From: Spirochaetota bacterium
GTDB lineage: Bacteria; Spirochaetota; UBA4802; UBA5550
Direction: 5' to 3'
DNA length: 64,000 nucleotides
Assembly: GCA_963663865.1 (NCBI GenBank)
Contig: OY760686.1
Span: 2,496,001 to 2,560,000, forward strand
Every line of letters begins with the position of its first letter. The stretch's first letter is position 1. This document shows positions 1 through 41,140 of this stretch, piece after piece. The position numbers were made by a program, and so were the translations under genes. Below the pieces are notes generated by a model. It was not told the origin of the DNA, searched no databases, and worked only from the letters and a program-made list of their open reading frames with translations.

Positions 1-153
1 GGCGAGAACACATGGGGGATCCATAACACCATGCTGACTGACCGATTTCACCAGCTCTTCCGAAATGTTATTTCTGCTAATTTTGAAATATTTTTCTTCA
101 GTGCTTATATGTGTGACAGGAATAGTGAAAATATCTTTCTTAATGCATTTCAT
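1..153 (-). CDS. ParB/Sulfiredoxin N-terminal-domain protein, 5' part only (runs off the window edge; not in ORF track)
   Basis: Manual translation from ATG at 153: MKCIKKDIFTIPVTHISTEEKYFKISRNNISEELVKSVSQHGVMDPPCVLA. EELVKSVSQHGVMDP fits the ParBc 'eL..Si...G...P' motif; starts 34 bp after the stop of the TPR gene. Confidence 0.6.
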   Translation of the reverse strand, partial: MKCIKKDIFTIPVTHISTEEKYFKISRNNISEELVKSVSQHGVMDPPCVLA

Positions 154-187
154 TTACGAAACTCTCAAACACGGTTTAGTTCCAAAG

Positions 188-1765
188 CTATAGAAGTCCC
201 TGGAGCAGATTACCGAACTGTTCAGGGTAAATCACCCTTACGTTTTTCAGCCTCTGCAGCGAGCTCTCAGCAGTCGGGGTCAGCATACCGCTTGTAATAA
301 AATATCCTTCTTTTGCCTTAATGTCATTGATGGCCTGCGCAAAATTTCGCAGAGGGATCTCTCCTATGCTCAGGCCTTTCCATCGTCTGACCCAAACGAG
401 AGCGGTATTTTTACCGTCGGATGACCTGGCAAGGAAATCCACACCATCTGATTCTTTATAGGTTGGAAGAATATCATCCACGGTGTAACCAAGTTTTTGA
501 ACCACCCTTCCCGCAATTATCCGGAAATTCTCTGTATCGAGCTCATAGAGACGCTCAATAACATCATCCCCCGGCATCACAGCATCCGCCTGTCTGGACT
601 GGCCAGATGTCTTTTGTTCTGACTGTTTACCGCGTCCAATAATTCCTCTGAGATCTATCTTCTCTGCAGATTTTAATCCGCAGATATCCCAGATAAAATC
701 CTCGGGGAACGTTTCTCTGATCCACTCTTCGCTATAGGCAACAAAAGCACCCGCCCCGCTGTCTTTTTTAAGCCTTCCATCAGCTTCCATCTCTTTTCGT
801 AAAAGCGTTGTAAGAATCTGTATTTTTTTATAGGATCTGTTCCTTTGATACAGTTGGTTCCAGTATTCATAGGCCATTTCAGTCTTCTCTGCTGCAATAG
901 CTATGAATCCTATATCGTAAAGGTACATCTCAATATCTTCAGATATGCCGGCTTTTACAGCGTCATTCAGAAGCTCCTCGTAAATAGACATGGCCTCGGC
1001 AGCTCTGTTCCACTGAAAGAGTATTATTCCCAACAAGCGCTTCCCGATTAGAGCGGCATTTATATCGCCGGAACCGTCAGCAACCTTTCTGGCATAGCTT
1101 GACGCGTTTGAAAAATCCCTTTTTTTATTTAAGGCAAAAGCCGCAGAAATGTTCGCTATCTCGGAAGACGAATTAATGGAGGCAGCCTCTCTGAAATACT
1201 CAATTGATTCAAGAAGCTTCTGATTCATAAAGGACGTTATTCCAGCACCAAACAGGACTTCAAACGACCTGCTCTTTGAAGCCTTGAGAAGTTTTTCAAA
1301 GTATTTAATCGAAAACTCAAACATCTCCTGTCCGAGAGATATAAAGGCTATGTGATAAAGCGCCTCTTCATCTGCCGGAAACGCTCTTGATATTTCAAAG
1401 AATGCCTGGAATGCCCTGTCAAGCTGCTCTCTTGAAACATATGCGCGTCCGAGCTTGCGCATAACATCATACCTGTCAACTTCGTGGCTGAACTTGCCTG
1501 AATTAAGAACCTGCTCATAGTGAATTACACCCTGATCAACTTCATTCTTGCGAAAATAGAGGTTTCCGAGGCGATAATTTACAACGGGATTAAGCGGATC
1601 ATTATCGAGAAGTTTTCGATACTCTTCAATCGCGTCTTCAATGCGGTTTTGACTGAGATACTCCTCAGCCCTGTTAGCAGGATTAAGTCTTGGAGCAATC
1701 AGGTAAACATAAGATACCACGACTCCAAGAATTAGCACTAAAGCTATTAATACCGGAATTACCAT
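188..1765 (-). CDS. Membrane-anchored TPR protein with C-terminal Mrr-like (type IV restriction endonuclease fold) domain
   Basis: N-terminal hydrophobic helix and multiple TPR repeats. C-terminus FRIIAGRVVQKLGY...SDGVDFLA...ALVWVRRW...GYFITSG matches the Mrr_cat layout but lacks QxK. Confidence 0.8.
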   Translation of the reverse strand: MVIPVLIALVLILGVVVSYVYLIAPRLNPANRAEEYLSQNRIEDAIEEYRKLLDNDPLNPVVNYRLGNLYFRKNEVDQGVIHYEQVLNSGKFSHEVDRYDVMRKLGRAYVSREQLDRAFQAFFEISRAFPADEEALYHIAFISLGQEMFEFSIKYFEKLLKASKSRSFEVLFGAGITSFMNQKLLESIEYFREAASINSSSEIANISAAFALNKKRDFSNASSYARKVADGSGDINAALIGKRLLGIILFQWNRAAEAMSIYEELLNDAVKAGISEDIEMYLYDIGFIAIAAEKTEMAYEYWNQLYQRNRSYKKIQILTTLLRKEMEADGRLKKDSGAGAFVAYSEEWIRETFPEDFIWDICGLKSAEKIDLRGIIGRGKQSEQKTSGQSRQADAVMPGDDVIERLYELDTENFRIIAGRVVQKLGYTVDDILPTYKESDGVDFLARSSDGKNTALVWVRRWKGLSIGEIPLRNFAQAINDIKAKEGYFITSGMLTPTAESSLQRLKNVRVIYPEQFGNLLQGLL

Positions 1766-1821
1766 ATTGATTACAGCTATCTGACTCCATCATGTAAGTA
1801 TTTTTGACTATACACGTAACA

Positions 1822-1849
1822 ATATCGGCATTTCGTCCGGTTTAAATTA
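1822..1849 (-). promoter_or_regulatory. Putative sigma-28 (FliA/SigD-type) promoter
   Basis: Minus strand TAAT-N16-GCCGATAT, 56 bp upstream of the ATG at 1765. The -10 is an exact match to the SigD consensus; the -35 has one mismatch to TAAA. Confidence 0.45.
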
Positions 1850-1863
1850 TGAAAAGCGGGGAT

Positions 1864-3960
1864 TTATCTACGCTTTAAGAAGCGCACCACAGAAGGCCAG
1901 CCATTTATAGTATACGAATTAGAGCTTTCTTTCTTGAGGATATAATCGTCCCCTTCAACGATTGCGGTTTTGAAGGGAAGATTGATCTGAATATCAGGCG
2001 GTATGAAGCGCGGAGGGCTTGAAAAGTGTAACTGAATCTCATTTGATGTTGTTACAATTCTGAAACCGATCTCACCGAACCTTGATGGCGCATTGTCAAC
2101 CCTGAGTTCGTTTCCGGTTTTAAACCATGCCTCATCCGGTTCAGGGAATATTTCAAGTTGATCGCTGGTATCAGAGAAGAGAAGGTTTCTTGTCAGTATG
2201 AACATCATTGCAGAAATGACCTTATCCGCACCGTCCCCCCATACTCCTTTCATGCTGACTGGATTCACATAATCAGGGAAGGTAAACCCGGTCCCGGCAA
2301 TCGCCATCATTTCCTTCAGAGGCCCGGCAATTTTCTTCTTAACAGATAAAAAGCTGTTTAGAATTATTGCCGTTGAGAATACATCAACTCCCAGCGCCTG
2401 CAGCCTCACCGGTACTCTGTCAAATGCCGACAGCACATTCTTTATTAGCGTTTTTTGTTCTTCCACAGAAAGAACATTGCAGGTATATGGATATACGAGC
2501 ATCAGCGCCGGGATGTACATGCCGGTTGCTCCATGCTTTGTTGAATAATCAGCAGCTGAGAGCATGCTGGAGATTATTTTCTCAAGGCGAACAGCTTCCT
2601 TCGAGAACTCCTTCTCCTCGCCGAAAAGACCGCCGCATCTGGCCATATACGCTATATGCTTCACCGCGCACAGAACAGAGGCTGCTTCCTGTATGGTAAA
2701 AAAGCCATCAGCTACTTCACCTGGCAGAAAAAAACCAGGGCTGCCTTCCCTCAGATACTGCTTTGAATACCTCAAAAGCTGTCTGCTTTCTCCTGATATC
2801 AGGCGATACATATTTGAATCGCGGCGATAAATAAAATATTCGCTGCAAGCGGATACAAGATGTGAATAATCTATTATATCTTTTTTTGCCGCCTTTTTTT
2901 TAGGAAGTTGACTTCCTGCAGCAGTGTCACGGATGAGCCTCTCTGCCTCCTCAAAATAACCTGCTCTGACCATCGCGTGTATTACAGTATAGAATCCGAA
3001 GCTGTATTCTTTTAAGGAGTCAACAGCATCAACGGGTAGAAATTCCAGAAGAGACGACTTCATTGCGAGTAAAAATTCCTCCAGTCTGGCATCAGGCAGC
3101 TTGCAGCTGATACCAGACTGAGTTCTGGCTGATGAATAGAGCCGGAATTTATCCATTTCACCGTCCGTATCGGAAAATGAAGCTGACAGTGAGATTCCCT
3201 TTACCAGAGGGGCCCGCATCAATAATTCGTTTTGACCTTTTTTCAGTTTAAACAATGCCGTCGCCGACGCAAGTCCATATGGACATTCACATCTAACACT
3301 GTCAGACTCCTGAGACAGATCTATATCGCCCGTCTCGGCAGTCCCAAAAAAAACAGAATGCGGTCTATCAGAAAATTTAAGCGCCGCAATTCCATCCGCG
3401 CTTAGAGTCGAAGCTCCATCATCGCAGCCTGCCGAATTCAATGTTCCCAGAATTTCGTTGTTATAGGGACGCAGTGATACGGCCAGGTAGTGAGATGAGT
3501 CTGAAACTTTTACAGCGGCCGAAATCAGAGCCATGTCCTGGTAATAACCGGAACCGGATATCTTAATTACAGCCTCAAATCCTCTTCCGCTCCAGGTGAT
3601 TGTCTGTGTCAGCGTTTCTGCATCTTTAACAACTGAGACACTGTCTGTTTTAAACTGAGGACGGCGGACTGTCTTCCCGTCGTACAACCATAATTCAACA
3701 GACCATTTTGAGAAGGAAGGCGTAATCATGCCAGACGGATCAACGCGCAATTCTCCAGATGAAATAAAATTGGAGAAAACAGACCACTGTCGCTGTGAGG
3801 TGTTCAGTAATACTGGAGGGTAAATCTCTGTTTCCGAGCTTGAATCGGAATCAGATTGAGCGTAAACCCAGGAGGGCCAGTAACGTTGAGGATATTTTAT
3901 AAATATGTCAAAATTACCGACTCCCGTCGAAATCAACTCATCTCTATTAATAGGTCTCAA
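1864..3960 (-). CDS. Six-hairpin glycoside hydrolase-like protein (family unclear, possibly inactive)
   Basis: 698 aa; N-terminal beta-rich region, helical core, and C-terminal 'WGDG...RNLL...WF...LRVDNAPSRFGEIGF' typical of (alpha/alpha)6 GH-like proteins; TTG start. Confidence 0.55.
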   Translation of the reverse strand: MRPINRDELISTGVGNFDIFIKYPQRYWPSWVYAQSDSDSSSETEIYPPVLLNTSQRQWSVFSNFISSGELRVDPSGMITPSFSKWSVELWLYDGKTVRRPQFKTDSVSVVKDAETLTQTITWSGRGFEAVIKISGSGYYQDMALISAAVKVSDSSHYLAVSLRPYNNEILGTLNSAGCDDGASTLSADGIAALKFSDRPHSVFFGTAETGDIDLSQESDSVRCECPYGLASATALFKLKKGQNELLMRAPLVKGISLSASFSDTDGEMDKFRLYSSARTQSGISCKLPDARLEEFLLAMKSSLLEFLPVDAVDSLKEYSFGFYTVIHAMVRAGYFEEAERLIRDTAAGSQLPKKKAAKKDIIDYSHLVSACSEYFIYRRDSNMYRLISGESRQLLRYSKQYLREGSPGFFLPGEVADGFFTIQEAASVLCAVKHIAYMARCGGLFGEEKEFSKEAVRLEKIISSMLSAADYSTKHGATGMYIPALMLVYPYTCNVLSVEEQKTLIKNVLSAFDRVPVRLQALGVDVFSTAIILNSFLSVKKKIAGPLKEMMAIAGTGFTFPDYVNPVSMKGVWGDGADKVISAMMFILTRNLLFSDTSDQLEIFPEPDEAWFKTGNELRVDNAPSRFGEIGFRIVTTSNEIQLHFSSPPRFIPPDIQINLPFKTAIVEGDDYILKKESSNSYTINGWPSVVRFLKRR

Positions 3961-4036
3961 TATTCCAATCTCATGGTAATTTAGTATTTTACGAGTTCCG
4001 GCATAAAAAAAGGCAGCTTAAGACAACACTGTATTA

Positions 4037-4396
4037 TCAGTCCTCCAGATTAAAACTCCGCAGGGCTTCGTCTTCGGTTTCGTAGATATCAAACATATCC
4101 ATAAGCTCTACAACCTCAAAAATCTTCTTAACGGCGTTATTCATATTACTCAGTTTAAGCTTTCTTCTTGATTCCTTCAACACTCTCATTGTCGACACAA
4201 ATATCCTCAGCCCGGAACTGCTCATGTATTCGACATCCTTAAGATTGAGGAGAAGATGGCAGGTCTTGTTGTCGCGGATAATATTGTTCAATTCAGCTTC
4301 AATATCCGCGGATAGATGGACGTCCAGTCTCCCCTTAAGGGATATAACAGCAACGTTATCTTCCATTTTCATGTCCAGCTGCATGTTCATCTCCAT
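4037..4396 (-). CDS. STAS-domain anti-sigma factor antagonist (SpoIIAA/RsbV family)
   Basis: LKGRLD...LNLKDVEYMSSSGLR with the phosphorylatable Ser motif. Confidence 0.92.
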   Translation of the reverse strand: MEMNMQLDMKMEDNVAVISLKGRLDVHLSADIEAELNNIIRDNKTCHLLLNLKDVEYMSSSGLRIFVSTMRVLKESRRKLKLSNMNNAVKKIFEVVELMDMFDIYETEDEALRSFNLED

Positions 4397-4431
4397 TTTT
4401 TATAATCAGAAAAATTTCATATCAACGTGTT

Positions 4432-4460
4432 AATGTACGATCCCTGACACAAATAATCAA
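4432..4460 (-). promoter_or_regulatory. Putative sigma-70 promoter for the STAS gene
   Basis: Minus strand TTGATT-N17-TACATT upstream of 4396. Confidence 0.4.
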
Positions 4461-4475
4461 CAAAAAAACAAAAGC

Positions 4476-4976
4476 CTATTCCACACCATCACGGGCATTT
4501 TTCCTGGTAAGCAGCAAACCAGCGGATGTTGCAATTGTAATAAACAGAAACACGGAAGCCGCAATAACAATTAATACTGATCCCCCCAGATGAGCATTGC
4601 CCCCGACAATTGCCCTGTCAAGATGATATTTCAACACCAGCAATACAGCATTTTTGACCAGCACAACTGATGCCATCATGGGGAAAAGCAGTCCGATGTA
4701 ATAGATCATCCCTCTGTATCTAAGCGGGTCGAAAAGAGGAAGAATCATAGCACAGCCGGCAGCAAAAAGAAGCGCGGAAAAGGCTCTAAAAAAGTAATAC
4801 ATCGGCCCGACCAGTTCGTGATCCTTAACCAGATCAAACCAGTTTTCTGATATATTCATCGCGAATGCCTGTATCGCTCCAATTGGATGTATATAGAATA
4901 TCAATCCGGCTGATATATACACCAATCCTGTGAAAAGAATAATAAACTGCAAAATATTCGTTCGTTTTGACCTCAT
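4476..4976 (-). CDS. Hypothetical integral membrane protein (about 4 TM helices)
   Basis: Four hydrophobic segments; start moved to the ATG at 4976 (MRSKRTN) after a GAGGG RBS-like motif. Confidence 0.7.
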   Translation of the reverse strand: MRSKRTNILQFIILFTGLVYISAGLIFYIHPIGAIQAFAMNISENWFDLVKDHELVGPMYYFFRAFSALLFAAGCAMILPLFDPLRYRGMIYYIGLLFPMMASVVLVKNAVLLVLKYHLDRAIVGGNAHLGGSVLIVIAASVFLFITIATSAGLLLTRKNARDGVE

Positions 4977-5066
4977 TCTCGATACACCCTCATAAAGAAT
5001 CAACAATTTCAGCACAATGTGCTTTTCAATAAATATCAGGCAAACTTTACAGAAGCTCCTCTTTTT

Positions 5067-6875
5067 TCAACAGATTTTCTGCAATATTTCAGTGGTCGCC
5101 TTTTCAGCGTTTATGATCATTTTTTCAGGATTATAAGCCTCGTTAACAGGGTTGATTTCAAAGCACCTCTCGGCAAGGCAGCTGCTGCTGTCCCGCATGC
5201 GGCGGGAAGTCCCGTCCGAAACGTGATCGAGATAAAACCTGAGCACTCCCATTCCGCCTGTATTAACCTCCAGTGAATCATTCAAGGAAACAAAATCTAC
5301 CCTGTCTACATCAGCCCTGAAAGCATCAGCTACGGTTACACCCCGTTCCGGATAAGAAGCCCGCCACAACCCGCCAGCCAGTTCCACAGGTTCAAAAAGC
5401 CCTGACAGCTGAAATGATGAAGCCATCAGCGTTGCAATTGATCCCGTGCTGAAAAGCCTGTCTTCTCCGCTTATAGACGACAACTTTACGACCGGCAGAG
5501 TTTTAAACATCTCGGCCCTCATCCGTCCCGCCGCTCCTGAAGATGCAGACGCTATACCAGAACTTCGAAAGACAAACCTGTCGGGAAAAACAATATCTAT
5601 ATATGAGGCAAGTTTCGCTTCAGAAAAAAAGCTGATTGCCGCTTTGTAGAAGCTCTCTCTGCCGGAAGACACAAGGAACAGCGAGACAAGAATGGACGAA
5701 AACGCTGATGAGTATATTTTATCATACGAAAGCCTCCCTTCGTATAACTCTGCAATGAAAGGGACATAGTAAAGAGATGAGAGTACTTCAGGCTGAATAA
5801 CCAGAGCTCTCTTCTCAGATGAAACTGCAGAAGCAAAAGCGCTGCATGCTCCCTCACCCCTCATTGCTGAAAATGCATCTTTCCCCGATTTTGAATAATC
5901 TTCGAGAAATAGATATCCGGCAGTGTCATTCCCGGGTTTAGCGTTAAACATGTTTAAAATATGATATATCCTCTGCCCACTGTTTATGGCACGGTCAAAC
6001 AACAAATCGTATGAAGAAAAGTCCCGCGTCCGCTGTCCGACCGCAAAGACATAATCTGAAACAGAGAGGGCCCTGTCCCTCAGTTCCGGATCATCATCTG
6101 AAAGATCCATCACAATATAGCTGTATTCAAATCCAAGCCTGAACAGCACCGGAGAAAGGATTGAACTGTCAACAGCGACCTTTGAAAAATGCGAAACATT
6201 TAAAAGGCTGAAAGTATCATTCACCCTTTGAATTCTTTCAGCTATGGAGTATTCTGATGTTACAGAATCGTCGCGCCTCTCGGAAATTGGCGGAGTCAAC
6301 CTCAGACCGAGATATTCAAAAGCGGACTTCCCCGTCGAACTCGCATCTAGAAGTACCGTGTTGCCGGTCTCTGAAAGCTTTTCCGCCACAAGCGTCGCAA
6401 TCAACGTTTTACCTTTTACACTGCTATTACCGTAGACAGAGATTACCCTTGTAGTGCTGCCTGGTATGTAGCCGGGAAGCCCGTCAACCTTAAACCCGGT
6501 TCTTTCAAGTATTCGAATATAGCCCCTGTATGCTTTGAAATTAAATAGAAAGAAGCGGCGGATATCATCCTCGCTTAAAACAAATACAATAGAATCACAC
6601 AGAGCCCTGACGCGACCGCTCTGCGTCCTTGAGGCAAATGGGAGCCGTCCAAAATACGATCCGGCGTTCATGTAAACTGCTTCAGAGGGTATAACTCCGC
6701 CGGCTGAAAGGAGACCGCTTACAACAACGCAGAGCGATGTGTCTTTTTCCGCGGTCATTTCAGAGTTGCCTTTCAGATTCAGCGTCTTTCCGCAGCTCGC
6801 AAGCTGAATAATTTCATCTGAAGTCAGATGGCCGAAAAAGTGAAGACTGCGCAGTATTTTAAAGAGATTTCTCAT
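5067..6875 (-). CDS. cNMP-binding + ParA/MinD-like P-loop + patatin-like fusion protein (degenerate motifs)
   Basis: LHFFGHL...VVVSG...GSYFG (cNMP fold); VISVYGNSSVKGKT...LLDAS...YIVMD (ParA-like); ALVI...SSAFS...ASSFQLSGLFEPV (patatin layout). Confidence 0.7.
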   Translation of the reverse strand: MRNLFKILRSLHFFGHLTSDEIIQLASCGKTLNLKGNSEMTAEKDTSLCVVVSGLLSAGGVIPSEAVYMNAGSYFGRLPFASRTQSGRVRALCDSIVFVLSEDDIRRFFLFNFKAYRGYIRILERTGFKVDGLPGYIPGSTTRVISVYGNSSVKGKTLIATLVAEKLSETGNTVLLDASSTGKSAFEYLGLRLTPPISERRDDSVTSEYSIAERIQRVNDTFSLLNVSHFSKVAVDSSILSPVLFRLGFEYSYIVMDLSDDDPELRDRALSVSDYVFAVGQRTRDFSSYDLLFDRAINSGQRIYHILNMFNAKPGNDTAGYLFLEDYSKSGKDAFSAMRGEGACSAFASAVSSEKRALVIQPEVLSSLYYVPFIAELYEGRLSYDKIYSSAFSSILVSLFLVSSGRESFYKAAISFFSEAKLASYIDIVFPDRFVFRSSGIASASSGAAGRMRAEMFKTLPVVKLSSISGEDRLFSTGSIATLMASSFQLSGLFEPVELAGGLWRASYPERGVTVADAFRADVDRVDFVSLNDSLEVNTGGMGVLRFYLDHVSDGTSRRMRDSSSCLAERCFEINPVNEAYNPEKMIINAEKATTEILQKIC

Positions 6876-6888
6876 ATCAGCTGAAAGC

Positions 6889-8241
6889 TCAAATCTTTTT
6901 CAGCAGTTCAATCAGCTCAGTCTTGCCAAGTGTCTCTATCGGGCGTGTGTTGGCAAAATCGAGGGCTTTTGTTGAATAATCGCCGGTCGTAATGACCATT
7001 ATCCTTGTGACGTTTCTCGGCTTCATTCCCTCATACAAACGGCGGAGAATAGATTCCTGTATAGAGTCGGTTGTTCTGATTACACGGATAAGCCGGTTTG
7101 ACTGTCTCGCATTTCTCCATTTACCTTCAATCTCAGTTGCCACCATCTCTATGTCAGTGTCGCTTATAATGTCAACATCAGTAATCGTAAACCCCATTCC
7201 GTTGACAATCTTTCTGCAAAGATGCTCAAATTGAGACAGACCTGCAATCATAAAGTCCTTTATTCTGTCGTCCTGCCTGAACTCGGAGAACTGTCTGAGC
7301 TTATCCGGGACATCCCGGAAGTTCTTATTGACCTCAGCGATGAGCTCCCAGTTCCTGATTGCTGAGTGGACATCCCTCATCTTTTCCTGACTTTCCGCGA
7401 GGTAGTACCTGAGATTCAGAGCGGTCTCACTGCCGCTTCGAGCGAACTTGAGCCCCTTCTCAAATTCCATTGCAGCTTTGGGATACTGGCTTCTCTCAAG
7501 AAAGCATGAACCCTTTGCCAGGAAGCACTTAACTTTAAGCTCGTCGCTTTTTTGTGCAAAATCGAATTCCTTGATAGCCCATTCATAGTCACCCTGCTGC
7601 CTGAGAACAAGCCCCAGAAAGTAATGGGCCTTGTAGTTATTCTGATCCAGCTTGATAACGTTGAGGAACATCTGCTTCGCGTCACCGAAATTATTTGTTT
7701 TGTAAAAAATCTGTCCAAGATGATAATATGACATATCATGCTTCTGATTATTTGAGACGCTCTTTTTGAAAAAACCTGTGGCCTTATCATACTGGTTCAG
7801 GTTGTAGAAAATTGTTCCGAGTTCAAAAAAATTCTCGTAATTTGCGGGATCAATCTTGGTTAGAATGAGATATTCTTTCTTTGCATCCTCCATGGCATTA
7901 CGGTTTTTCAAAAGCGCCGCCAGCTTTGTTCTTACATAAACCTCACTGACCTTGTCATCGAAGCGGCCGAGCTTCAAAACCTGTCTGTATTCAACAATAG
8001 CAAATTGGAAATTTGACTCTTTTCTGTACGCCTCAGCAAGAAGAAAATGCGCGTAGGCGTTACGCTCATCCTTGACAATCATCTCTCCGAGTTTCTTTAT
8101 AGCCAGCCGGGTCTGCCCATTATCTATCATTCTCGCTATTTCATTGATCTTTTTCGGGAGAAACACAGTGTAAATGATATAGAACACGATGAGTCCGAGA
8201 ATTATGAAGAAAATAAATATTATTGCATAGGTTAATATCAT
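6889..8241 (-). CDS. Membrane-anchored TPR protein with C-terminal Mrr-like domain (paralog of 188..1765)
   Basis: N-terminal TM and clear TPRs (AHYFLGLVLRQQGDYEWAIKEF). C-terminus FEHLCRKIVNGMGF...MVITTGDYSTKALDFA has the Mrr_cat fold pattern. Confidence 0.82.
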   Translation of the reverse strand: MILTYAIIFIFFIILGLIVFYIIYTVFLPKKINEIARMIDNGQTRLAIKKLGEMIVKDERNAYAHFLLAEAYRKESNFQFAIVEYRQVLKLGRFDDKVSEVYVRTKLAALLKNRNAMEDAKKEYLILTKIDPANYENFFELGTIFYNLNQYDKATGFFKKSVSNNQKHDMSYYHLGQIFYKTNNFGDAKQMFLNVIKLDQNNYKAHYFLGLVLRQQGDYEWAIKEFDFAQKSDELKVKCFLAKGSCFLERSQYPKAAMEFEKGLKFARSGSETALNLRYYLAESQEKMRDVHSAIRNWELIAEVNKNFRDVPDKLRQFSEFRQDDRIKDFMIAGLSQFEHLCRKIVNGMGFTITDVDIISDTDIEMVATEIEGKWRNARQSNRLIRVIRTTDSIQESILRRLYEGMKPRNVTRIMVITTGDYSTKALDFANTRPIETLGKTELIELLKKI

Positions 8242-8439
8242 CTTGAAGAATCCTTTTCAGATTTTTAAACCAGGCCCGGAAGACATGGACCTTCGGACAG
8301 ACACTAAGTTGCAGTATAGCCCATGTCCTGTCAATATATCAATTATTTTTCATCAAATAATCAATATGGCTCCTCTTTCTTGAAATTGACATATCTTCTT
8401 TCAGAAGAGCCGAATTGAACGTAAAAAATCAAAATTGTA

Positions 8440-8484: not shown

Positions 8485-8557
<73 letters not shown>

Positions 8558-8568
8558 CAGATTCCCCG

Positions 8569-14362: not shown

Positions 14363-15775
14363 CTATGAATTCATTGCCTTAAAAAAGGCCTTATTGTTCT
14401 TTGTTGCCCTCATCTTGTCAATTAAGAGCTCCATTGCCTCTGTAGAGCTGAGTGAAGACAGCGCCTTCCTTAATACCCATAATTTATTGAGTTCTTCCTC
14501 GTCAAGCAGTAATTCTTCTTTCCTTGTGCCGGACTTATTAATGTCTATGGCGGGGAAAATCCTCCTGTCTGAAAGCTTCCTGTCCAGATGAAGCTCGCAG
14601 TTTCCAGTTCCCTTAAACTCCTCAAAGATTACCTCATCCATACGGCTTCCGGTATCAATAAGAGCTGTGGCGAGTATTGTCAGGCTTCCACCTTCTTCAA
14701 TGTTCCGCGCGGCTCCGAAGAATCTCTTCGGTTTATGCAGAGCATTAGAGTCAACACCACCTGATAGTATTTTCCCGCTTGTGGGAACAACTATATTGTA
14801 GGCCCTCGCCAGCCTGGTGATTGAATCCAAAAGAATAACAACGTCCATCTTTCTTTCGACAAGACGTCTGGCCTTTTGTATTACCATCTCAGCTACCTGA
14901 ACATGCCTGCTGGCCTGCTCGTCAAAGGTTGAAGATACTACCTCTCCCCTTACTGATCTCTGCATATCGGTAACCTCTTCAGGCCTCTCATCGATGAGCA
15001 GAACAATCAGGTAAACCTCAGGGTGATTTGATGTGATAGCATTGGCTATTTCCTGCATGAGAACAGTCTTTCCTGTCCTTGGCGGAGCAACGATAAGAGC
15101 TCTCTGTCCTTTCCCTATGGGAGTAAAGAGATTCATTATACGCATCTCGATTTTATCGCCGGTTGTTTCAAGATTGATTCTTTCTTCAGGATAGAGGGGA
15201 GTAAGGTTGTCAAAAAGTACTCTTTTGTGCAGATTTTCAGGATTTTCAAAGTTTACGGCCTCTATCCTGAGCAGTGCGAAAAATCTTTCATTGTCCTTTG
15301 GAGGCCTTATCTGTCCCGCGATCGTATCACCGGTCTTTAATTGGAAAAGCCTGATCTGCGAAGGCGATACATATATATCGTCGGGCCCTGGAAGATAGTT
15401 GTAGTTTGGAGACCTCAGAAATCCATATCCATCGTTGAGAATCTCAAGTACACCGCTCGCAAAGATAAGTCCTTTCTGCTCTGTCTGTGATTTCAGAATC
15501 TCAAATATCAGATCCTGCTTTTTAAGCCCTGAAACCCTCTCAGCGCCCATTTCCCTGCCAAGCTGCGCAAGCTCGGAGATTGTTTTACCTTTCAACTCTG
15601 CGAGGTCGAGCCTTGGCCCGCTTACCTGCTCAGGGGTGATTATTTGATCTTCAATGCTTCCGGCTGTATTTTCAGCGCTGTTATCCGCTGAGCTTAATCC
15701 GGAATTCGCGGATGAATTCCTGCCGTTGGCACTCCGGGCCCTTGGTCCGGCACCGTTGTTCTCTGATCTTGCCAT
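14363..15775 (-). CDS. rho: Transcription termination factor Rho
   Basis: [45 protein letters not shown]. Confidence 0.98.
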
Positions 15776-23147: not shown

Positions 23148-23684
23148 GTGGACAAATTTATGGGAACTTCGGAAAATCTATATCTCGCAAACAGGGAAGA
23201 GTCAGCCATTTCAGTTACGCTGATCCCTTCGGTCGTGCGCGCGAAATGGGTTGAGGCTGGCAATACGGCGGACTTTATTGCAGATTTTTACAACCAGTGT
23301 TTCAACGACAGAAAGATCAGGGACATGATATCAACCGTACTGAATGAGCTTATTGAAAATGCCGTAAAATTCTCCGGCAGCGACAGCCTTCCTGTAAACG
23401 TTGAGAGCAACGCGACCGACAGCAGCATAGTTTTCCGTGTGACTAACAGCATTAAAGCGGAATCGCTCGATTCCCTGTACACGGCCTTCAACGACCTTGA
23501 AAGCTCCGATCTGGGCAAAACCTTCACAAGCAGAATAGAGAATCTCGATATGTCCGCGAACGGAGCCGGGATTGGCCTCATCCTTCTAAAAAAATTCTAT
23601 AAAGTCAGAATTGGTCTTGTTGTGTATGAGTCGGCTGATGAGCTGATAAAAGTCACGGTTTCGGCTGAGATCCCGATCCATTAG
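23148..23684 (+). CDS. HATPase-fold anti-sigma/Ser kinase-like protein (SiaB/slr1658-like)
   Basis: STVLNELIENAVKF N-box and GAGIGL G2 box. Confidence 0.75.
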   Translation: MDKFMGTSENLYLANREESAISVTLIPSVVRAKWVEAGNTADFIADFYNQCFNDRKIRDMISTVLNELIENAVKFSGSDSLPVNVESNATDSSIVFRVTNSIKAESLDSLYTAFNDLESSDLGKTFTSRIENLDMSANGAGIGLILLKKFYKVRIGLVVYESADELIKVTVSAEIPIH

Positions 23685-27718: not shown

Positions 27719-28546
27719 ATGTCCAGCGATTCACATTACTACAGTTCGTACAAGGAAGACAGAGACCTTGTTCTTGAGTACAACCAGGTCTCGCTTGAAG
27801 ACGGAGAGCCGGTAAACGTGCTGGGTGTCAACATTGACAATCTGACAAGGGAACAGGCTGTTGTCAAAGTCATACGCATGATTGAAAACGGGGGAGTAAA
27901 CCACATCGTTCCGGTAAATCCCTATAAAATCGAAAGAATGAAGACCCGTCAGGAGATGAGAAACCTGTTCTCCGGCGCGGACATGATAATTCCCAGCGGA
28001 GCTGGCGTGGTATGGGCGGCAAAGAAAATCAAAACCCCTCTGAAGCAGAGAATCCCCATACTCAGCTTTATGATGGACATTATCCGTATCGCTGAAATCA
28101 AGGGCTTTTCCATCTTCATTGTTGGCGGCAAACCGGAAACTGCCGAGATGGCCTTCTTCAACATCAGAAAATCGTTTCCGAAAATACGAATCGTAGGCAG
28201 GCACGGCGGATATTTCAGCCCTGAACGGGAAAAGGCGGTCGTGGAAGCTATGAGAAAATCGGAAGCAAATATCGTCTTCGTAGGCATGGGTTTTCCAAAA
28301 GAAAACAGATGGATTGAAAAGATAAAGGGAGAATTTCAGAATACAGTCTTCGTCGGCGTTGGCGGATGTATTGACATTATTTCAGGCGACATCAAGAAAG
28401 CGCCCGCCTGTGCGATGGCAACGGGCACAGACTGGCTTTACAGAACCGCAGTCAGGCCTTGGCGTATCGGGCGTCTTATGCGAATTTTCAAATTCTATGT
28501 TCACGCTTTCTTCAAAGGCCTGTTTACGCGAACTCACGGGAAATAG
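27719..28546 (+). CDS. WecB/TagA/CpsF-family glycosyltransferase
   Basis: VGRHGGYF, VFVGMGFPKE, GVGG, WLYR...PWRIGR. Confidence 0.9.
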   Translation: MSSDSHYYSSYKEDRDLVLEYNQVSLEDGEPVNVLGVNIDNLTREQAVVKVIRMIENGGVNHIVPVNPYKIERMKTRQEMRNLFSGADMIIPSGAGVVWAAKKIKTPLKQRIPILSFMMDIIRIAEIKGFSIFIVGGKPETAEMAFFNIRKSFPKIRIVGRHGGYFSPEREKAVVEAMRKSEANIVFVGMGFPKENRWIEKIKGEFQNTVFVGVGGCIDIISGDIKKAPACAMATGTDWLYRTAVRPWRIGRLMRIFKFYVHAFFKGLFTRTHGK

Positions 28547-28548
28547 GC

Positions 28549-28767
28549 CTATTTCTCGTACCGGTTTTTAAGCGCCCGCGTATCGCGGGCATCCATCAGC
28601 TCACCAGAGCTCACCTTACAGCGGCCAAGCGTAAAGCCGGCTACCTCTTCCGTGTATCCGCAGCTTCTACATTTAAATATCGGATTCCCAGCTTCGGTCC
28701 ATTCAGAAGCATCCACGTACCTCGAACTGCATCTCCTGCAAAATATCACCGACACGAATTCACTCAT
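28549..28767 (-). CDS. Small zinc-ribbon protein
   Basis: 72 aa with CRRC...CRSC; purine-rich RBS; directly downstream of the GAF/PP2C gene on the same strand. Confidence 0.65.
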   Translation of the reverse strand: MSEFVSVIFCRRCSSRYVDASEWTEAGNPIFKCRSCGYTEEVAGFTLGRCKVSSGELMDARDTRALKNRYEK

Positions 28768-28793
28768 ATTACTCTCTCTTTCTGGATTTACTG

Positions 28794-30068
28794 TTATTGG
28801 ACCAGCTTGACCGCAGCAACTGCCAGGTCTTCTCTGACCGCCAGTCCCTCCGCGAAATCTTCAGCCGCTTTCAAAAGCGCGCCTGCCCCTTCTTCAACTG
28901 ACTGAACCTGTTGCGCCAGAGCGCTCAGCAGGACATCTTTAGACAGCTTTCTTCCTGACCTGTTGCGTATGTTAAACACACCGCCGGTAACCGCCGCCAG
29001 ACAGTCTCCGGGCTTCATCTTTACGGTTATTACACGGCCATATCCCGGCTCTTCGGGTCCGGACTGGAAAACCATCTTGGCCTCATTGCCAATTCTCTTC
29101 AGTATTACACATACATTGCCGGCCGTAACAAACGATACTGACTGCGTGCCGCCATCAATGAAACCGTAAACCCCTGATAAGGCTGCTGCCCCCGGGAGTT
29201 GAATCATTGTTTTTCTGAGAAGCTGAAAAATCCTGGAAGGCGCCCCAAGAGGAACTATCGGCAGCGAAGATAATGCTCCGCGTATACTGGATGCGGCCAG
29301 GGCCCCGGGAATGCCTTTTCTTGAGACGTCGCCAATGTAAAAATACGCGACCTCCTCACTGATTTCCATTCCGCCATGCAGTACGCCTCCCAGCTCACGC
29401 GCGGGCTTTGAAAGCGTAAACGCGGACAATCCGCCCGCACGTACTGATACGCTCCTGCCGAAGACCTCGTTGACAGCAACTGCTCCTTCGACCTCGGCCT
29501 TTAAGCGTTCCTCCTCAATCGCTTTCTGAAAATAGACTGCGTTTTGTACTGCCAGTGCGGCCTGATCCGCGAATATGCTGAACACGGCGCTGTCAGAAGC
29601 GGCAAAGCCTTCTCTGTCTGCGGCATTTATTGCCTGTATAACACCGAGAAGTTTACCCTTATGCAACAGGGGAGCGCACATAATCGATTTTGTGACAAAT
29701 CCGGTTGCCCGGTCATAATTTGGATCAAATCGGTCATCTGAATAGACATCGTTTACAATGAGGCTTTTCCCGCTCTTCGCGACATGGCCCGCGATGCCCT
29801 GCCCCATTCTAACCCGGTACTTTTCAGTCAACTCCTCACCGGCCCCTCCCAGAGCAACCTTAAAGACAAGATCGTCTGAAGATTCGTCGTAAAGCAGAAG
29901 AGTGCTTGCCTCAGCTTTAACGATCTCCTTAATTATCTCCATGATAATGTTCAGAAGCTTTTTTATATCGAGTGTTGAGTTGATAATCGTGTTTATTTCG
30001 ACAAGCCTGGCAAGGCTTTCTGTCTGATCATTGCCCCAGGTGTTTTCCAAAATCTGTGAAGTATCCAT
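28794..30068 (-). CDS. GAF + SpoIIE/PP2C-like phosphatase-domain protein (likely inactive)
   Basis: GQGIAG...NDVYSDDRF...DRATGFVTKSIMCAPL (GAF); PARELGG...IGDVSRKG (SpoIIE); start moved to 30068 after a GGAAGGGG RBS. Confidence 0.85.
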   Translation of the reverse strand: MDTSQILENTWGNDQTESLARLVEINTIINSTLDIKKLLNIIMEIIKEIVKAEASTLLLYDESSDDLVFKVALGGAGEELTEKYRVRMGQGIAGHVAKSGKSLIVNDVYSDDRFDPNYDRATGFVTKSIMCAPLLHKGKLLGVIQAINAADREGFAASDSAVFSIFADQAALAVQNAVYFQKAIEEERLKAEVEGAVAVNEVFGRSVSVRAGGLSAFTLSKPARELGGVLHGGMEISEEVAYFYIGDVSRKGIPGALAASSIRGALSSLPIVPLGAPSRIFQLLRKTMIQLPGAAALSGVYGFIDGGTQSVSFVTAGNVCVILKRIGNEAKMVFQSGPEEPGYGRVITVKMKPGDCLAAVTGGVFNIRNRSGRKLSKDVLLSALAQQVQSVEEGAGALLKAAEDFAEGLAVREDLAVAAVKLVQ

Positions 30069-30288
30069 TTCCCCTTCCGGCGCGGCAATCACCCGCCTGC
30101 AGAATTTCATCTCTCTGTTCCTGACAGCGACAGCTGTCCGTCCCCAAATTAGGCCGCCCCCGTACCGGGGGTTGCATCATTTCATCAAAGTATATTAAAA
30201 CGATAAATCCCCATAGTGAATCAGAAGAGTCTGAAGCTGTAAAGAAAAAAAAAGAATATTGTAAGCCCGATCAGGCCGCCTTTTTATG

Positions 30289-30317
30289 TTGACACAGCTG
30301 CCGCTGGATTCTTCAAT
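30289..30317 (+). promoter_or_regulatory. Sigma-70 promoter of the glycan cluster, predicting a leaderless wbqC mRNA
   Basis: TTGACA-N17-TTCAAT ending 1 bp before the ATG at 30318; predicted +1 coincides with the in-frame ATG at 30324. Confidence 0.55.
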
Positions 30318-30323
30318 ATGGTC

Positions 30324-31037
30324 ATGGCAAAGAGAGTTTCAATAATACAGTCAAACTACATTCCCTGGAAGGGTTATTTCGATATTATAAATTCATCCGA
30401 CATATTCATTATTTACGACGACGCCCAGTACACCCGCAGGGACTGGAGAAACCGCAACATCATTAAGACCCCGCGCGGGAGGGAGTGGCTCACTGTTCCG
30501 GTTGAGACAAAGGGATTCTACACGGCTCCGATAAATACGATAAGAGCTGCCGGCAAAGAATGGGCTGAAAAGCACTGGAAAACCATTAAGCGCAACTACT
30601 CGAAAACCAGATACTTCTCAAACTACAGCGGTCTTTTCGAATCCATCTACTCATCACTGGAAGATTATGAATATCTCACCGACATAAATATCAGGCTGAT
30701 TAAAGCAGTCAGCTCAATCACTGGAATTAAAACTGAGATTAAGGATTCAAGGGATTTCAACCTTAGCGGCGACAGCAACGGCAGGCTTATCTCTATGTGC
30801 CTTGAATCCGGAGCCGACGAGTACATTTCCGGCCCGTCTGCAGCGGCATATATTGACGAAAACAGATTCCGGGAAGCAGGGATTACGCTGAGGTGGATGG
30901 ACTACAGCGGGTATCCGGAATATCCGCAGCTCTATCCTCCATTCGATCACTGCGTTAGTATTCTTGATCTCATGTTCAACACGGGAGATGAGGCTCCCCT
31001 CTACATGAAATCCTTCGGGGAAGAGGCTTCCGCATGA
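30324..31037 (+). CDS. WbqC-family protein
   Basis: IIQSNYIPWKGYFD...YDDAQY...DWRNRN...YISGP...SILDL; ORF track start 30318, second ATG preferred. Confidence 0.92.
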   Translation: MAKRVSIIQSNYIPWKGYFDIINSSDIFIIYDDAQYTRRDWRNRNIIKTPRGREWLTVPVETKGFYTAPINTIRAAGKEWAEKHWKTIKRNYSKTRYFSNYSGLFESIYSSLEDYEYLTDINIRLIKAVSSITGIKTEIKDSRDFNLSGDSNGRLISMCLESGADEYISGPSAAAYIDENRFREAGITLRWMDYSGYPEYPQLYPPFDHCVSILDLMFNTGDEAPLYMKSFGEEASA

Positions 31038-32587
31038 AAGTATCCATTGTCACGTCGCTTTACCGTTCTCAGGACTACGTAAATGAGTTTTGCGCCCGGT
31101 GCAGAAAGTCCGCAGAAAGAATAGCAGACGACTTTGAAATCATCCTTGTAAATGATTGCTCTCCTGACAATTCACTTGAGAAAGCCCTCGCCTGTGCCGA
31201 GACCGACAGCCGCATCACCGTCATTGATCTTGCGAGAAACTTCGGACAGCACAGAGCAATAATGACAGGTATTGCTCACAGCAGCGGCGACTACGTTTTC
31301 ATTGCAGACTCAGACCTTGAAGAAGACCCTGCCCTTCTCGAAAGGTTTTACACCGTAATGATCTCAGAAAACGACACGGATGTCGTCTACGGTGTGCAAA
31401 CAGTAAGGAAGGGAGGCCTGATTGAACGTCTCAGCGGCAGCATCTTTTACAGGGTTTTCAACTTCCTCTCTGAGGTCAAAATCCCGGCAAATCAGATTAC
31501 GGCAAGGCTCATGACACGCCGTTACGCCGACGCGCTTATTCAGCACAGGGAAAGAGAGCTGTTCATGGCCGGCATCTGGGCGCTGACGGGGTTCAGGCAG
31601 GTTGCGGTTCCTGTTCGAAAGAGATCATCAAGCCCGACTTCATACACACTGAAGAAGAAGATATCCCTTCTTATTAATTCCCTGACATCATTCAGCAGCA
31701 GGCCTCTGCTTGCGGCATCCTATATCGGATTTGTTATTACAGTTTCCGCCTTCGCCGGCATAATAAAGCTCGTATACGACAGACTGGCGCACGGCACGGC
31801 TATCGAGGGATGGACATCGATTTTTGTCTCCATCTGGTTCGCCTGCGGACTCATAGTTTTCTTTGTCGGGCTGATAGGGCTCTACGTGTCGAGAATGTTT
31901 ACTGAAACAAAAAAAAGGCCCTACACTGTCATCAAGCAGATTCACAGCTTCCCCTGCCGTTTCAGCAGGGACAGGATCAAAAACACTGTTTCAGAATACT
32001 ACAGCAGCCTCGTGAAAACTCACGGCGCCACTCCGAAGGGCGCGGACTGGAATTCGAGCGAGTCTCAAACGCTTCGCTTCAGACAGCTTATGAATGCTGT
32101 GGAAAACGGCAAGCCGTTCAGCATCAACGAGTTAGGCTGCGGCTATGGCGCTCTGCCCGCCTGGATGAAGGATAACGGGTTCCGTTTCAGATATACCGGT
32201 TACGACATTTCTTCAGAGATGATCAGCGAGGCCAAAAAACTCCACTCAAAAGGCAGGAACATTTCATTCGTTAAGTCAGACCGCATGAAATCCGCGGACT
32301 ACACGGTGGCAAGCGGAATATTCAATGTCCGCCCCGGGATTTCCGAAAGGGAATGGGAGGCCTATGTCCAGGATACCATCAGAATGATGGACAGATCATC
32401 GGTCAAGGCATTTGCCTTTAACGCTCTGACCTCATATTCCGATTCACACCTCATGAGGGACGACCTCTACTACGCTGACCCTCTGAAGCTATTTGACTTC
32501 TGCAAAAGAAATTTTTCAAAAAACGTATCCCTTCACCACGATTACGGGCTGTACGAATTCACAATTATCGTCAGAAAGGATATATGA
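31034..32587 (+). CDS. GT2 (GtrB/ArnC-like polyprenol-phosphate glycosyltransferase) fused to a class I methyltransferase
   Basis: VNDCSPDNS, RNFGQ, DSDLEE, two TMs, KKRPYTV, then HGATPKGADW...ELGCGYG...GYDIS...ASGIFN. Confidence 0.88.
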   Translation: MKVSIVTSLYRSQDYVNEFCARCRKSAERIADDFEIILVNDCSPDNSLEKALACAETDSRITVIDLARNFGQHRAIMTGIAHSSGDYVFIADSDLEEDPALLERFYTVMISENDTDVVYGVQTVRKGGLIERLSGSIFYRVFNFLSEVKIPANQITARLMTRRYADALIQHRERELFMAGIWALTGFRQVAVPVRKRSSSPTSYTLKKKISLLINSLTSFSSRPLLAASYIGFVITVSAFAGIIKLVYDRLAHGTAIEGWTSIFVSIWFACGLIVFFVGLIGLYVSRMFTETKKRPYTVIKQIHSFPCRFSRDRIKNTVSEYYSSLVKTHGATPKGADWNSSESQTLRFRQLMNAVENGKPFSINELGCGYGALPAWMKDNGFRFRYTGYDISSEMISEAKKLHSKGRNISFVKSDRMKSADYTVASGIFNVRPGISEREWEAYVQDTIRMMDRSSVKAFAFNALTSYSDSHLMRDDLYYADPLKLFDFCKRNFSKNVSLHHDYGLYEFTIIVRKDI

Positions 32588-33264
32588 CACAACAGGAGAG
32601 AATTATGAAAAAGCTGATAATATTCGGAACAGGCGACATCGCGCAGATAGCCCATCTATACTTTTCTGAAAGCGGAGAATACAGCGTAGAAGCGTTTACT
32701 GTTGACAGAGACTTCATTAAGGCAGACAGCTTCTGCGGACTCCCTGTTCACGCCTTCGAAGATATCCGGAAGGATTTCAGCCCTGATGAATACGAGCTTT
32801 TCGTCGCTGTCAGCTACGCGGGCCTCAACCGCGTTAGGGCGTCAAAATACGAAGCAGGAAAGGCCATGGGATACCGCTTCGCAAGCTACATCAGCCCGGC
32901 CGCCAGCATCGCATCAAACGCCGAAATAGGAGAAAACTGCTTTATATTCGAAGACAACACGGTTCAACCCTTTGTAAAAATCGGCAATAATGTAACACTG
33001 TGGAGCGGCAACCACATAGGCCACCACTCCACCGTCGGAGACAGCTGCTTTATTACGTCCCATGTGGTTATATCGGGCGGTGTACATGTTGGAGATTTTT
33101 CCTTCATCGGAGTAAACGCGACTCTGAGGGATCACATAAAAATTGGGATGAGCTGCGTAATAGGAGCCGGAGCCATCATTATGAACAATACCGATGACGA
33201 AAGTGTCTACGTGCCTGAGAGGACGAAGCCCCGGAACATGAAGAGCAGCGAACTGCGTCTTTAA
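32584..33264 (+). CDS. Sugar acetyltransferase, NeuD/PglD hexapeptide family
   Basis: IIFGTG N-domain followed by left-handed beta-helix repeats (IGENCFI, IGNNVTL, IGHH). Confidence 0.92.
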   Translation: MTQQERIMKKLIIFGTGDIAQIAHLYFSESGEYSVEAFTVDRDFIKADSFCGLPVHAFEDIRKDFSPDEYELFVAVSYAGLNRVRASKYEAGKAMGYRFASYISPAASIASNAEIGENCFIFEDNTVQPFVKIGNNVTLWSGNHIGHHSTVGDSCFITSHVVISGGVHVGDFSFIGVNATLRDHIKIGMSCVIGAGAIIMNNTDDESVYVPERTKPRNMKSSELRL

Positions 33265-35059: not shown

Positions 35060-35592
35060 ATCAGATCCTCCACGCCCGTGATTCCTTTATTTCTTAAATT
35101 ATGCATCATCTTCTTTATTACCCTTTTATACCTGTAACCTGTCTGTCTTGAGCTGAGATTAAGCTGTAAAGCGGCCTCCCTGCGGGAATAGCGTAATATA
35201 GCAATAAGCTCAAAGACGGTCCTGTCAATATCATCCTCGTAGTTCTCAGCGTTATCAATCTCCTGCTGAAGCACTATCCTCAGATCGTTTGAAACAGACT
35301 CCCTCAAATCTGAAAGATCATCTTTTCCGCTGTCGAGTTCAACCTGGCTCTCGCCTCTGCTCCTGTAAAACTGAGATATCCTGTTTCTTGCCACAGTCAT
35401 CAGCCAGTTTTTTGGCTCAATTACTGTCTCAATATTCCTGTATAAATCAATGAATATTTCGTGGCAGATATCCTCGGCGTCTTCCACCTTCCCCAGAGAC
35501 TTATAGACTCTGTTAAAGACAAGGGAATAGTTGTTTCTATAGCACTCAATAAACTCGGTCTTTAAGGCCTTATCGTCTTCCATTTCCACCAT
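35056..35592 (-). CDS. ECF-family RNA polymerase sigma factor
   Basis: DAEDICHEIFI and WLMTVARN (region 2), YSRREAALQLNLS (region 4); start moved from 35778 to about 35592/35583. Confidence 0.85.
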   Translation of the reverse strand: MVEMEDDKALKTEFIECYRNNYSLVFNRVYKSLGKVEDAEDICHEIFIDLYRNIETVIEPKNWLMTVARNRISQFYRSRGESQVELDSGKDDLSDLRESVSNDLRIVLQQEIDNAENYEDDIDRTVFELIAILRYSRREAALQLNLSSRQTGYRYKRVIKKMMHNLRNKGITGVEDLI

Positions 35593-41136: not shown

Positions 41137-41140
41137 GCTA

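Follow-up and report, generated by a model that had tools for sequence, protein, structure and literature searches.

What do seven neighbouring genes do for a bacterial cell when several of them are built on enzyme folds from which the catalytic residues have been lost? This question is raised by one end of a 64,000-nt stretch of DNA from a Spirochaetota bacterium (contig OY760686.1, positions 2,496,001 to 2,560,000; hereafter the window), where six complete open reading frames (ORFs), A to F, and a seventh, G, cut by the window edge, lie on the minus strand within positions 1-8241. They encode a transmembrane (TM) protein with tetratricopeptide repeats (TPR) and an Mrr domain (A), a cyclic-nucleotide (cNMP)-binding/ParA-like/patatin-like fusion (B), a 4-TM protein (C), a STAS protein (D), a protein with a glycoside hydrolase (GH) fold (E), a second TM-TPR-Mrr protein (F) and a ParB-like protein (G). 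An earlier interpretation made from the letters alone (the sequence-only reading) had described seven same-strand neighbours separated by gaps of less than 100 nt, which was borne out by the ORF calls, with gaps of 13 (A-B), 51 (B-C), 79 (C-D), 76 (D-E), 98 (E-F) and 34 nt (F-G). It had also put the cluster forward as an undescribed system. A full-text literature search, judged on its listings and abstract openings, returned no account of the cluster, of the TM-TPR-Mrr architecture or of the cNMP/ParA/patatin fusion, nor any published function, and within that scope the block, as a system, matches nothing described. The explanation that we put first, as a real possibility though with less than an even chance, is an assembly, for the most part non-catalytic, at the cytoplasmic side of the inner membrane, organized around the gene pairs A-B and F-G.

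Loss of catalytic residues in A, F and B

Proteins A and F have the same order of parts. In A, a TM helix at residues 5-23 is followed by a TPR array and a C-terminal Mrr domain at residues 336-447 (positions 6901-7236), and in F the TM helix is at residues 2-20 and the Mrr domain at residues 407-517 (positions 215-547), on the other side of the TPR; hydropathy gave one N-terminal hydrophobic segment for each. Both matched the family Mrr_cat (PF04471) above its cut-off of 21 bits (A, 46.3 bits, 5.5e-12; F, 49.2 bits, 6.6e-13), and TPR families as well. Moreover, F had a match to NA-iREase1 below the cut-off (2.9e-4), and its Mrr domain alone found nothing significant in the PDB (best match Rpb5, E = 0.05). 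The two proteins had been proposed to be paralogs; they have this architecture in common but are only ~20% identical (E = 4e-8).

The catalytic motif of Mrr is reportedly QxK, found as VQAKRW in the E. coli protein. In the alignment to E. coli Mrr, this motif was replaced by RxI/V/L in all five A sequences (I/V-R-V/I-I/V/L-R-T) and by WxR in all five F sequences (V-W-V-R-R-W). The acidic residues of E. coli Mrr are kept in A and F, but the lysine is gone and its replacements are conserved, and judged by these residues the Mrr domains of both proteins are catalytically dead. Inactive homologs are known from the PD-(D/E)xK superfamily to which Mrr_cat belongs (PMC3424549, in extract). In a large protein collection, A had 320 homologs, and the 119 listed outside its own cluster were 62-75% identical to it and annotated solely as TPR proteins of uncultured Spirochaetota. 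Pfam, NCBIfam and PADLOC detected no NTPase domain (STAND/NACHT) in either A or F; Avs immune sensors combine an Mrr-like nuclease with a STAND NTPase and TPR. As a side observation, the start of a single-cell-genome contig (L006:2-411) carries two A fragments in opposite orientation, which looks like an amplification or assembly chimera.

Protein B is composed of a cNMP-binding-like domain (~6501-6875), a ParA/MinD-like P-loop domain (~5886-6473) and a patatin-like domain (~5196-5813), and the motifs of all three are degenerate. Taken alone, it had a sub-threshold match to Pfam cNMP_binding (18.8 vs. 27.5 bits) and a weak match to the ParA-type protein PF-32, and neither it nor its relatives had a name in the clusters consulted. 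By exhaustive HMMER searching, 102 representatives were retrieved (57 at E ≤ 1e-30), compared with a single one by a word-indexed search, and the family counts below rest on a 53-member alignment. Pfam recognized cNMP_binding in 40 of these members, Patatin in 10 and AAA_31 in 9, and the family profile matched the cNMP domains of PKG (6.7e-16), PF-32 (1.1e-14) and the patatin PlpD (1e-6) in the PDB. More distantly, B is homologous (E from 3e-12 to 1e-3) to a sister family of 650-710 aa with the same three-domain order. Fourteen of the 17 distant matches tested showed strong Patatin (1e-24 to 1e-34) and cNMP_binding (1e-20 to 1e-27) matches, and 7 of these 14 also matched AAA_31.

Compared with six intact sisters, the B family has lost the Gly-rich oxyanion loop of patatins (GxGxxG). 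The Asp of the patatin DG[GA] motif is present in none of the 53 members, and the nucleophile column (GxSxG) holds Ser in 29 of them and Ala in the window copy. The phosphate-binding cassette of cNMP domains is defined by a Glu (FGE) and an Arg; the Glu was found in 6/53 members, with Arg in its place in the window copy, and the cassette Arg/His of the sisters aligns with Gly in B. ParA and MinD proteins have a deviant Walker A motif, KGGxGK[ST], with a signature lysine. At that signature position only 5/53 members have Lys, and the window copy reads NSSVKGKT. The Walker A lysine itself is present in 35/53 members and varies in the sisters too (2/6), which suggests that the ParA-like domain was probably non-canonical before the families split. 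Overall, the lost motifs identify B as a dead derivative of an intact family of cNMP-sensor/ParA-like/patatin phospholipases. The earlier claim of catalytic erosion thus stands for A, F and B. Also supported is the view that the block works neither as an Mrr restriction system nor as a patatin lipase system, since the defining catalytic residues are missing and their replacements are conserved.

Conservation of the block and purifying selection

When one genome per GTDB species was scanned by pattern, with the 12 closer B sequences as query, 19 loci were found, all from Spirochaetota metagenome-assembled genomes or one single-amplified genome, and no named Leptospira was among the 19 loci of this single scan. 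Counting only loci whose contig reached far enough, C followed B in 19/19, and A was present in 16/17, D in 17/18, E in 15/15, F in 12/13 and G in 12/13. The linkage is therefore kept across divergent genomes, with two exceptions (loci L001 and L002). G was always the last co-directional gene, followed by convergent genes in two arrangements, one with an S1 protein and the other with DHH/GlyQ/HDOD.

The median identity to the window copy was 69% for D, 65% for A (15 orthologs), 45% for F, 42.5% for C, 32% for B and 30% for E, compared to 64% for GreA, encoded upstream of the block, which puts A and D level with GreA in conservation. The ratio of nonsynonymous to synonymous substitution rates (dN/dS) was taken from unsaturated pairs only, the distant locus pairs being left out because their dS was saturated. 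It amounted to 0.012-0.047 for A, 0.027-0.14 for D, 0.054-0.063 for F, 0.062-0.096 for B, 0.043-0.149 for C, 0.114-0.128 for E and 0.20 for G, and the comparison genes gave 0.044 (GreA) and 0.07-0.11 (M16 peptidases). By this measure, with values from 0.012 to 0.20, purifying selection acts on each of the seven genes, none of which is decaying. The sequence-only reading had called the ORFs intact and full-length, which applies to A-F; G is partial in the window.

Could the block be an anti-phage defence system, or the decaying remnant of one, akin to the cNMP-triggered patatin effectors of CBASS or Pycsar logic combined with TPR-Mrr immune sensors? At the domain level only, four intact sisters of B (P0077, P0084, P0086 and P0092) matched PADLOC effector models, namely the Pycsar cNMP part (down to 4.6e-16) and the CBASS phospholipase (down to 1.2e-10). 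The Mrr domains of A and F had weak PADLOC matches (mREase_IV, 4.2e-5; PDC-S02), and Mrr-like nucleases and TPR co-occur in the Avs literature in the extracts available. In contrast, B, C, D and E had no PADLOC match, and neither had three of four G orthologs, the fourth giving one 18.9-bit match to a methyltransferase model. There was no system-level match for the block, and Pfam and NCBIfam detected neither a cyclase nor a STAND NTPase in it. Furthermore, the would-be effectors have lost their catalytic residues, with conserved replacements, the block occupies a fixed core-genome position across the clade, and the evolution of A and D is slow, on a par with that of GreA and unlike that of typical defence genes. 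A decaying remnant is also at odds with the fact that all the genes are intact. That the block is a defence system or the remnant of one is regarded as highly improbable.

Proteins C, D, E and G

Protein C has about four hydrophobic segments by hydropathy. It had no match in Pfam, NCBIfam or PADLOC, and the Atlas returned just its own Spirochaetota cluster. At L001, the B-C pair exists without the rest of the block.

Protein D is a single-domain STAS protein of the SpoIIAA/RsbV type (Pfam STAS, 3e-20; TIGR00377, 87.9 bits vs. a cut-off of 53.45). Among 17 sequences, 57 of the 119 alignment columns were invariant, including S59-S60-S61-G62, and the invariant serine is, by comparison with SpoIIAA, presumably the phosphorylation position. 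A kinase or PP2C phosphatase that could act on D was found neither among the seven genes (Pfam, NCBIfam) nor in the rest of the window, which was scanned with NCBIfam at E ≤ 1e-10. Elsewhere in the window, at 23148-23681 (+), there is a regulator of the slr1658 superfamily (NCBIfam, 2.6e-31), and D weakly matches the companion slr1659 superfamily (1.3e-4), so a distant functional link between STAS-type regulators of this genome is conceivable.

Protein E had no Pfam match, and a word-indexed search gave 7 homologs. Its structure was predicted by AlphaFold2 using an alignment of 20 relatives, with a predicted local distance difference test score (pLDDT) of 86.6 and a predicted template-modelling score of 0.89, compared to a pLDDT of 34.6 in a single-sequence run. 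The model comprises an N-terminal beta-sandwich, an (alpha/alpha)6 barrel and a C-terminal beta domain. Foldseek matched it in the PDB to GH94 cellobiose phosphorylase (5e-17), GH15 glucoamylase (1.7e-14), GH95 and GH65 (E from 5e-17 to 1e-11 over the four families), and to the GH94-like part of a membrane cyclic glucan synthase (8rf0), with template-modelling scores of 0.5-0.6 at ~10% identity and in agreement with the Atlas leads. The pentatricopeptide matches of the E profile against PDB sequences were rejected as repeat-driven artefacts, and the GH matches of that search were sub-threshold (0.088-0.89). E is a cytoplasmic protein and, according to the model, has a glycoside hydrolase/phosphorylase fold. 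Its invariant residues include E89, R164, R441, E449, E455, D526, R591 and D597, so that the label of pseudoenzyme, which the sequence-only reading had given to the cluster, is unproven for E. In one locus (L003:12831-14027), the E ortholog ends after 399 aa, 112 nt from the contig end, possibly owing to a frameshift or an assembly error.

The conserved acidic and basic residues of E raise the alternative of an enzyme-centred pathway, with E at work in the cytoplasm as a glycoside hydrolase or phosphorylase and B perhaps acting on lipids as a non-canonical enzyme. The substrate would be an envelope glycan, a glycolipid or a storage sugar, with the TPR anchors, the STAS protein and the ParB-like protein as regulators or assembly factors. 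Two glutamates, two aspartates and two arginines of E (E449, E455, D526, D597, R441 and R591) are invariant. The fold predicted for E matches the four GH families, among them the part of 8rf0, its dN/dS (0.114-0.128) indicates purifying selection, and the D-E gap is short (median of 27 nt across loci). However, E belongs to no Pfam GH family and its GH matches among PDB sequences stay below threshold, few genes of the block evolve faster than its own (30% identity), Pfam and NCBIfam found no glycosyltransferase, transporter or sugar kinase in the block, and the patatin Asp is gone in every B member aligned. On this evidence, a pathway centred on E is unlikely.

Finally, protein G, whose orthologs are 303-313 aa long, follows F in 12/12 loci having F. 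Two of the four orthologs tested matched ParB_N (L004, 33.3 bits vs. a cut-off of 26.3; L010, 24.9 bits) and two did not (L012 and L017), and the ortholog profile matched ParB (6e-9) and Noc (2e-6) over the N-terminal domain and a helix-turn-helix-like region. The GERR box of ParB (GERRxR) reads GHNR in G and G/C-H/F-N/K-R in the orthologs, where the last Arg alone is nearly invariant. The sequence thus identifies G as a divergent ParB/Noc-like protein with an altered nucleotide box. For B, E and G, the structure and profile searches gave the folds that had been named from the letters alone.

Possible organization into transcription units

Across the loci, the median gaps were 12 nt for A-B, 22 nt for B-C, 125 nt for C-D, 27 nt for D-E, 107 nt for E-F and 9.5 nt for F-G, and GreA and A were 223-2116 nt apart. 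The likeliest organization of the block is that of an operon-like unit, and the gap pattern suggests that it possibly consists of three sub-units, A-B-C, D-E and F-G. Upstream of D, a T-run followed by TTGATT recurs in several loci (MAFFT alignment of the upstream regions of 18 sequences), and a candidate internal promoter was read there (Table 1). The spacer before F (1766-1863 in the window) is ~100 nt long, and its length is kept across loci (62-204 nt). Moreover, most loci have an A-T-rich ATAATTGAT-like block ~60 nt 5' of the F start, which may be, from its sequence, an internal promoter for F-G. Promoter-like sites in the region numbered 12, compared with 15.2 ± 2.7 in shuffles, and were thus not enriched; terminator-like sites (12 vs. 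7.8 ± 3.1) were counted as no enrichment, and the six of them on the minus strand all lie within genes.

A proposed membrane assembly and its alternatives

In the assembly that we favour, A and F would be the membrane anchors. Lys/Arg residues directly follow their TM helices, so that, by the positive-inside rule, the TPR and dead-Mrr parts would face the cytoplasm. The A and F genes each closely precede a gene of partition-protein ancestry (B and G, respectively; median gaps of ~10 nt), and by analogy with LapB, an inner-membrane TPR adaptor in the regulation of LPS, A would recruit B, and F would recruit G, to the membrane through their TPR or dead-Mrr surfaces. Instead of catalysing reactions, the dead folds would bind protein, nucleotide, lipid or DNA. 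Because S59-S61 and G62 are invariant, D could be a phospho-regulated partner switch, whose kinase and phosphatase would be encoded elsewhere, and E may still be catalytic and possibly the sole enzyme output of the block. A complex prediction for A (residues 30-450) with D, run without controls, scored 0.00 and counts neither for nor against binding. The concrete candidate partner pairs are A-B, F-G and D with the anchors.

The observations on which the sequence-only reading was built were confirmed as a whole. It had proposed a membrane-tethered scaffold or signalling complex of repurposed enzyme folds, perhaps positioning something through the ParA/ParB-like parts and switched by STAS phosphorylation, in place of an active restriction or lipase system; the negative half of this proposal holds and the positive half is a reasonable hypothesis.

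Several findings weigh against such an assembly, in addition to the invariant charged residues of E, which may be a working enzyme. The gaps of ~100 nt before D and F and the promoter-like sequence kept before D argue for separate transcription units. Locus L001 (1-4239) reads GreA-B-C and then an ABC-transporter ATPase, without A and D. Locus L002 (9859-16520) has no F-G after E, but convergent aminotransferases and a phosphofructokinase, and also a stand-alone intact patatin gene (14584-15546; Patatin, 1.2e-33); these two exceptions indicate that the block is separable. Upstream genes of unrelated function (M16 peptidases, RseC and GreA) are syntenic too, and part of the linkage may therefore reflect shared ancestry in one clade and not co-function. 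In addition, the window copy of B keeps G-K-T in its P-loop, which makes nucleotide binding possible, and all finds of the family, which is known here from sequence alone, are from uncultured Spirochaetota.

Many of these points favour a conserved neighbourhood without a common complex, in which independent housekeeping and regulatory proteins would have kept their synteny because the clade is young. At these loci the synteny extends to M16b-M16a-RseC-GreA, a single Spirochaetota lineage accounts for all 19 of them, L001 and L002 show that the block can split, internal promoters are likely before D and F, and the evolutionary rates vary widely, from 30% to 69% identity. Against this, the order A-G is kept although B, E and G have diverged to ~30% identity, in flanks that vary both in the GreA-A spacer and in the two downstream arrangements. 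The A-B and F-G gaps are only ~10 nt, and the rare TM-TPR-dead Mrr architecture occurs in two copies, each beside a ParA-like or ParB-like gene. A mere neighbourhood is hence considered somewhat unlikely. A bolder reading, which we regard as quite improbable, is a membrane-nucleoid tether peculiar to this spirochaete clade. There, G as a Noc/ParB-like DNA binder and the two dead-nuclease domains, which could still bind DNA but not cut it, would hold the chromosome at the inner membrane via the TPR anchors A and F, B would couple the tether to membrane lipid or to a nucleotide signal, and D would switch it.

If the seven proteins do cooperate, they would represent an undescribed kind of bacterial membrane assembly made almost entirely of dead enzyme folds. 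With its intact sister family available for comparison, it would offer a clean natural example of phospholipase and restriction nuclease folds turned to structural or regulatory use. It would also be a lineage-specific module for spirochaete cell biology, where the membrane-proximal organization of long thin cells is poorly understood. Were the tether to be true, it would be a housekeeping machine for cell organization, domesticated from effector architectures that are otherwise known from anti-phage immunity (cNMP-sensor/patatin and TPR/Mrr). More generally, defence-like architectures at core-genome positions need not be immune systems.

Coordinates and neighbouring genes

The features are collected in Table 1. 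The orthologs of C align from query residue 13-14, so that its start is likely Met14, and the ortholog alignments point to Met5 as the start of D; the gap downstream of each gene's predecessor would then be 90 nt for C and 91 nt for D.

Table 1. Genes of the block and associated features, with positions in the window.
Feature	Position	Strand	Description and basis
Gene A (TM-TPR-Mrr)	6889..8241	-	450 aa; ORF, Pfam, hydropathy
Gene B (cNMP-binding/ParA-like/patatin-like)	5067..6875	-	602 aa; ORF, family profile
Gene C (4-TM)	4476..5015	-	179 aa as called; 166 aa from Met14 (ATG at 4976)
Gene D (STAS)	4037..4396	-	119 aa as called; likely start Met5 (ATG at 4384)
Gene E (glycoside hydrolase fold)	1864..3960	-	698 aa; ORF, AlphaFold2 model
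Gene F (second TM-TPR-Mrr)	188..1765	-	525 aa; ORF, Pfam, hydropathy
Gene G (ParB-like)	1..153	-	first 51 codons only, ATG at 153, cut off by the start of the window; closes the block
Promoter-like site upstream of A	8313..8342	-	TTGATA-18-TATACT; 10/12 matches; candidate
Candidate internal promoter upstream of D	4432..4460	-	TTGATT-17-TACATT; reading by eye of the MAFFT alignment
tRNA-Ala(GGC)	8485..8558	+	upstream boundary between GreA and the block

The tRNA-Ala was the sole Rfam match, and beyond it, upstream, lie the genes of GreA, RseC and a pair of M16 peptidases. Elsewhere the window has the character of ordinary core chromosome (Rho, DapA/B, ThiC, AroA, PyrG, Mfd and Lgt). A 124-aa ORF inside gene A (7416-7790, -), in another frame of the same strand, is probably spurious. 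Polysaccharide or O-antigen-type genes were found at 27719-33261 and 41015-42271 (a WecG/TagA-family transferase, a GT2 transferase, a NeuD-family acetyltransferase and a WecE-type aminotransferase), and an extracytoplasmic function (ECF)-type sigma factor at 35059-35778. Furthermore, two spirochaete-specific NCBIfam families were matched below their cut-offs, namely the type II secretion-associated lipoprotein TIGR04410 (18655-19008, -; 47.7 vs. 50 bits) and the LIC_10450 family (52722-53597, +; 139.2 vs. 150 bits), which would fit a Leptospira-related lineage.

Comparison with known systems

The block departs in at least one defining feature from each of six known classes, namely Mrr nuclease, patatin lipase, ParA ATPase, ParB CTPase, CBASS/Pycsar and LapB. 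A and F resemble the type IV restriction enzyme Mrr and the PD-(D/E)xK nucleases in their Mrr_cat matches and acidic residues, but they have no QxK lysine, and a TM helix and a TPR array replace the N-terminal DNA-recognition part of Mrr. With LapB/YciM they share a single N-terminal TM helix, a TPR array (probably cytoplasmic in A and F) and a small C-terminal globular domain. The TPR of F is collinear with that of LapB (8v24; residues 35-321 vs. 44-324, E = 7.7e-6). However, this C-terminal domain is a dead Mrr fold in place of the rubredoxin-type domain of LapB, and the NCBIfam LapB models matched A and F far below their cut-offs (18-35 vs. 363-670 bits).

B has the three-domain order of its intact sister family, from which it differs by the absence of GxGxxG, DG[GA], the cassette Glu and Arg/His and, in part, GxSxG, and by being ~80 aa shorter at the C-terminus; a looser likeness may exist to the cNMP-patatin esterases of the NTE/PNPLA6 type. 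E shares its predicted three-part fold with GH95 and with the clan GH-L-like enzymes of GH94, GH15 and GH65, in contrast to its ~10% identity to them and its place outside the Pfam GH families. Like the SpoIIAA/RsbV modules, the block contains a STAS protein of the anti-sigma-antagonist type with an invariant serine, but no SpoIIAB/RsbW-type kinase, PP2C phosphatase or sigma factor among its seven genes. Finally, the likeness to ParABS and Noc lies in the ParB/Noc regions matched by G and in the P-loop domain of B, which matches PF-32, ParA and Soj structures. Unlike those systems, G has a GHNR box, B has no ParA signature lysine, and the B and G genes are not adjacent to one another, each adjoining instead the gene of a membrane TPR anchor.

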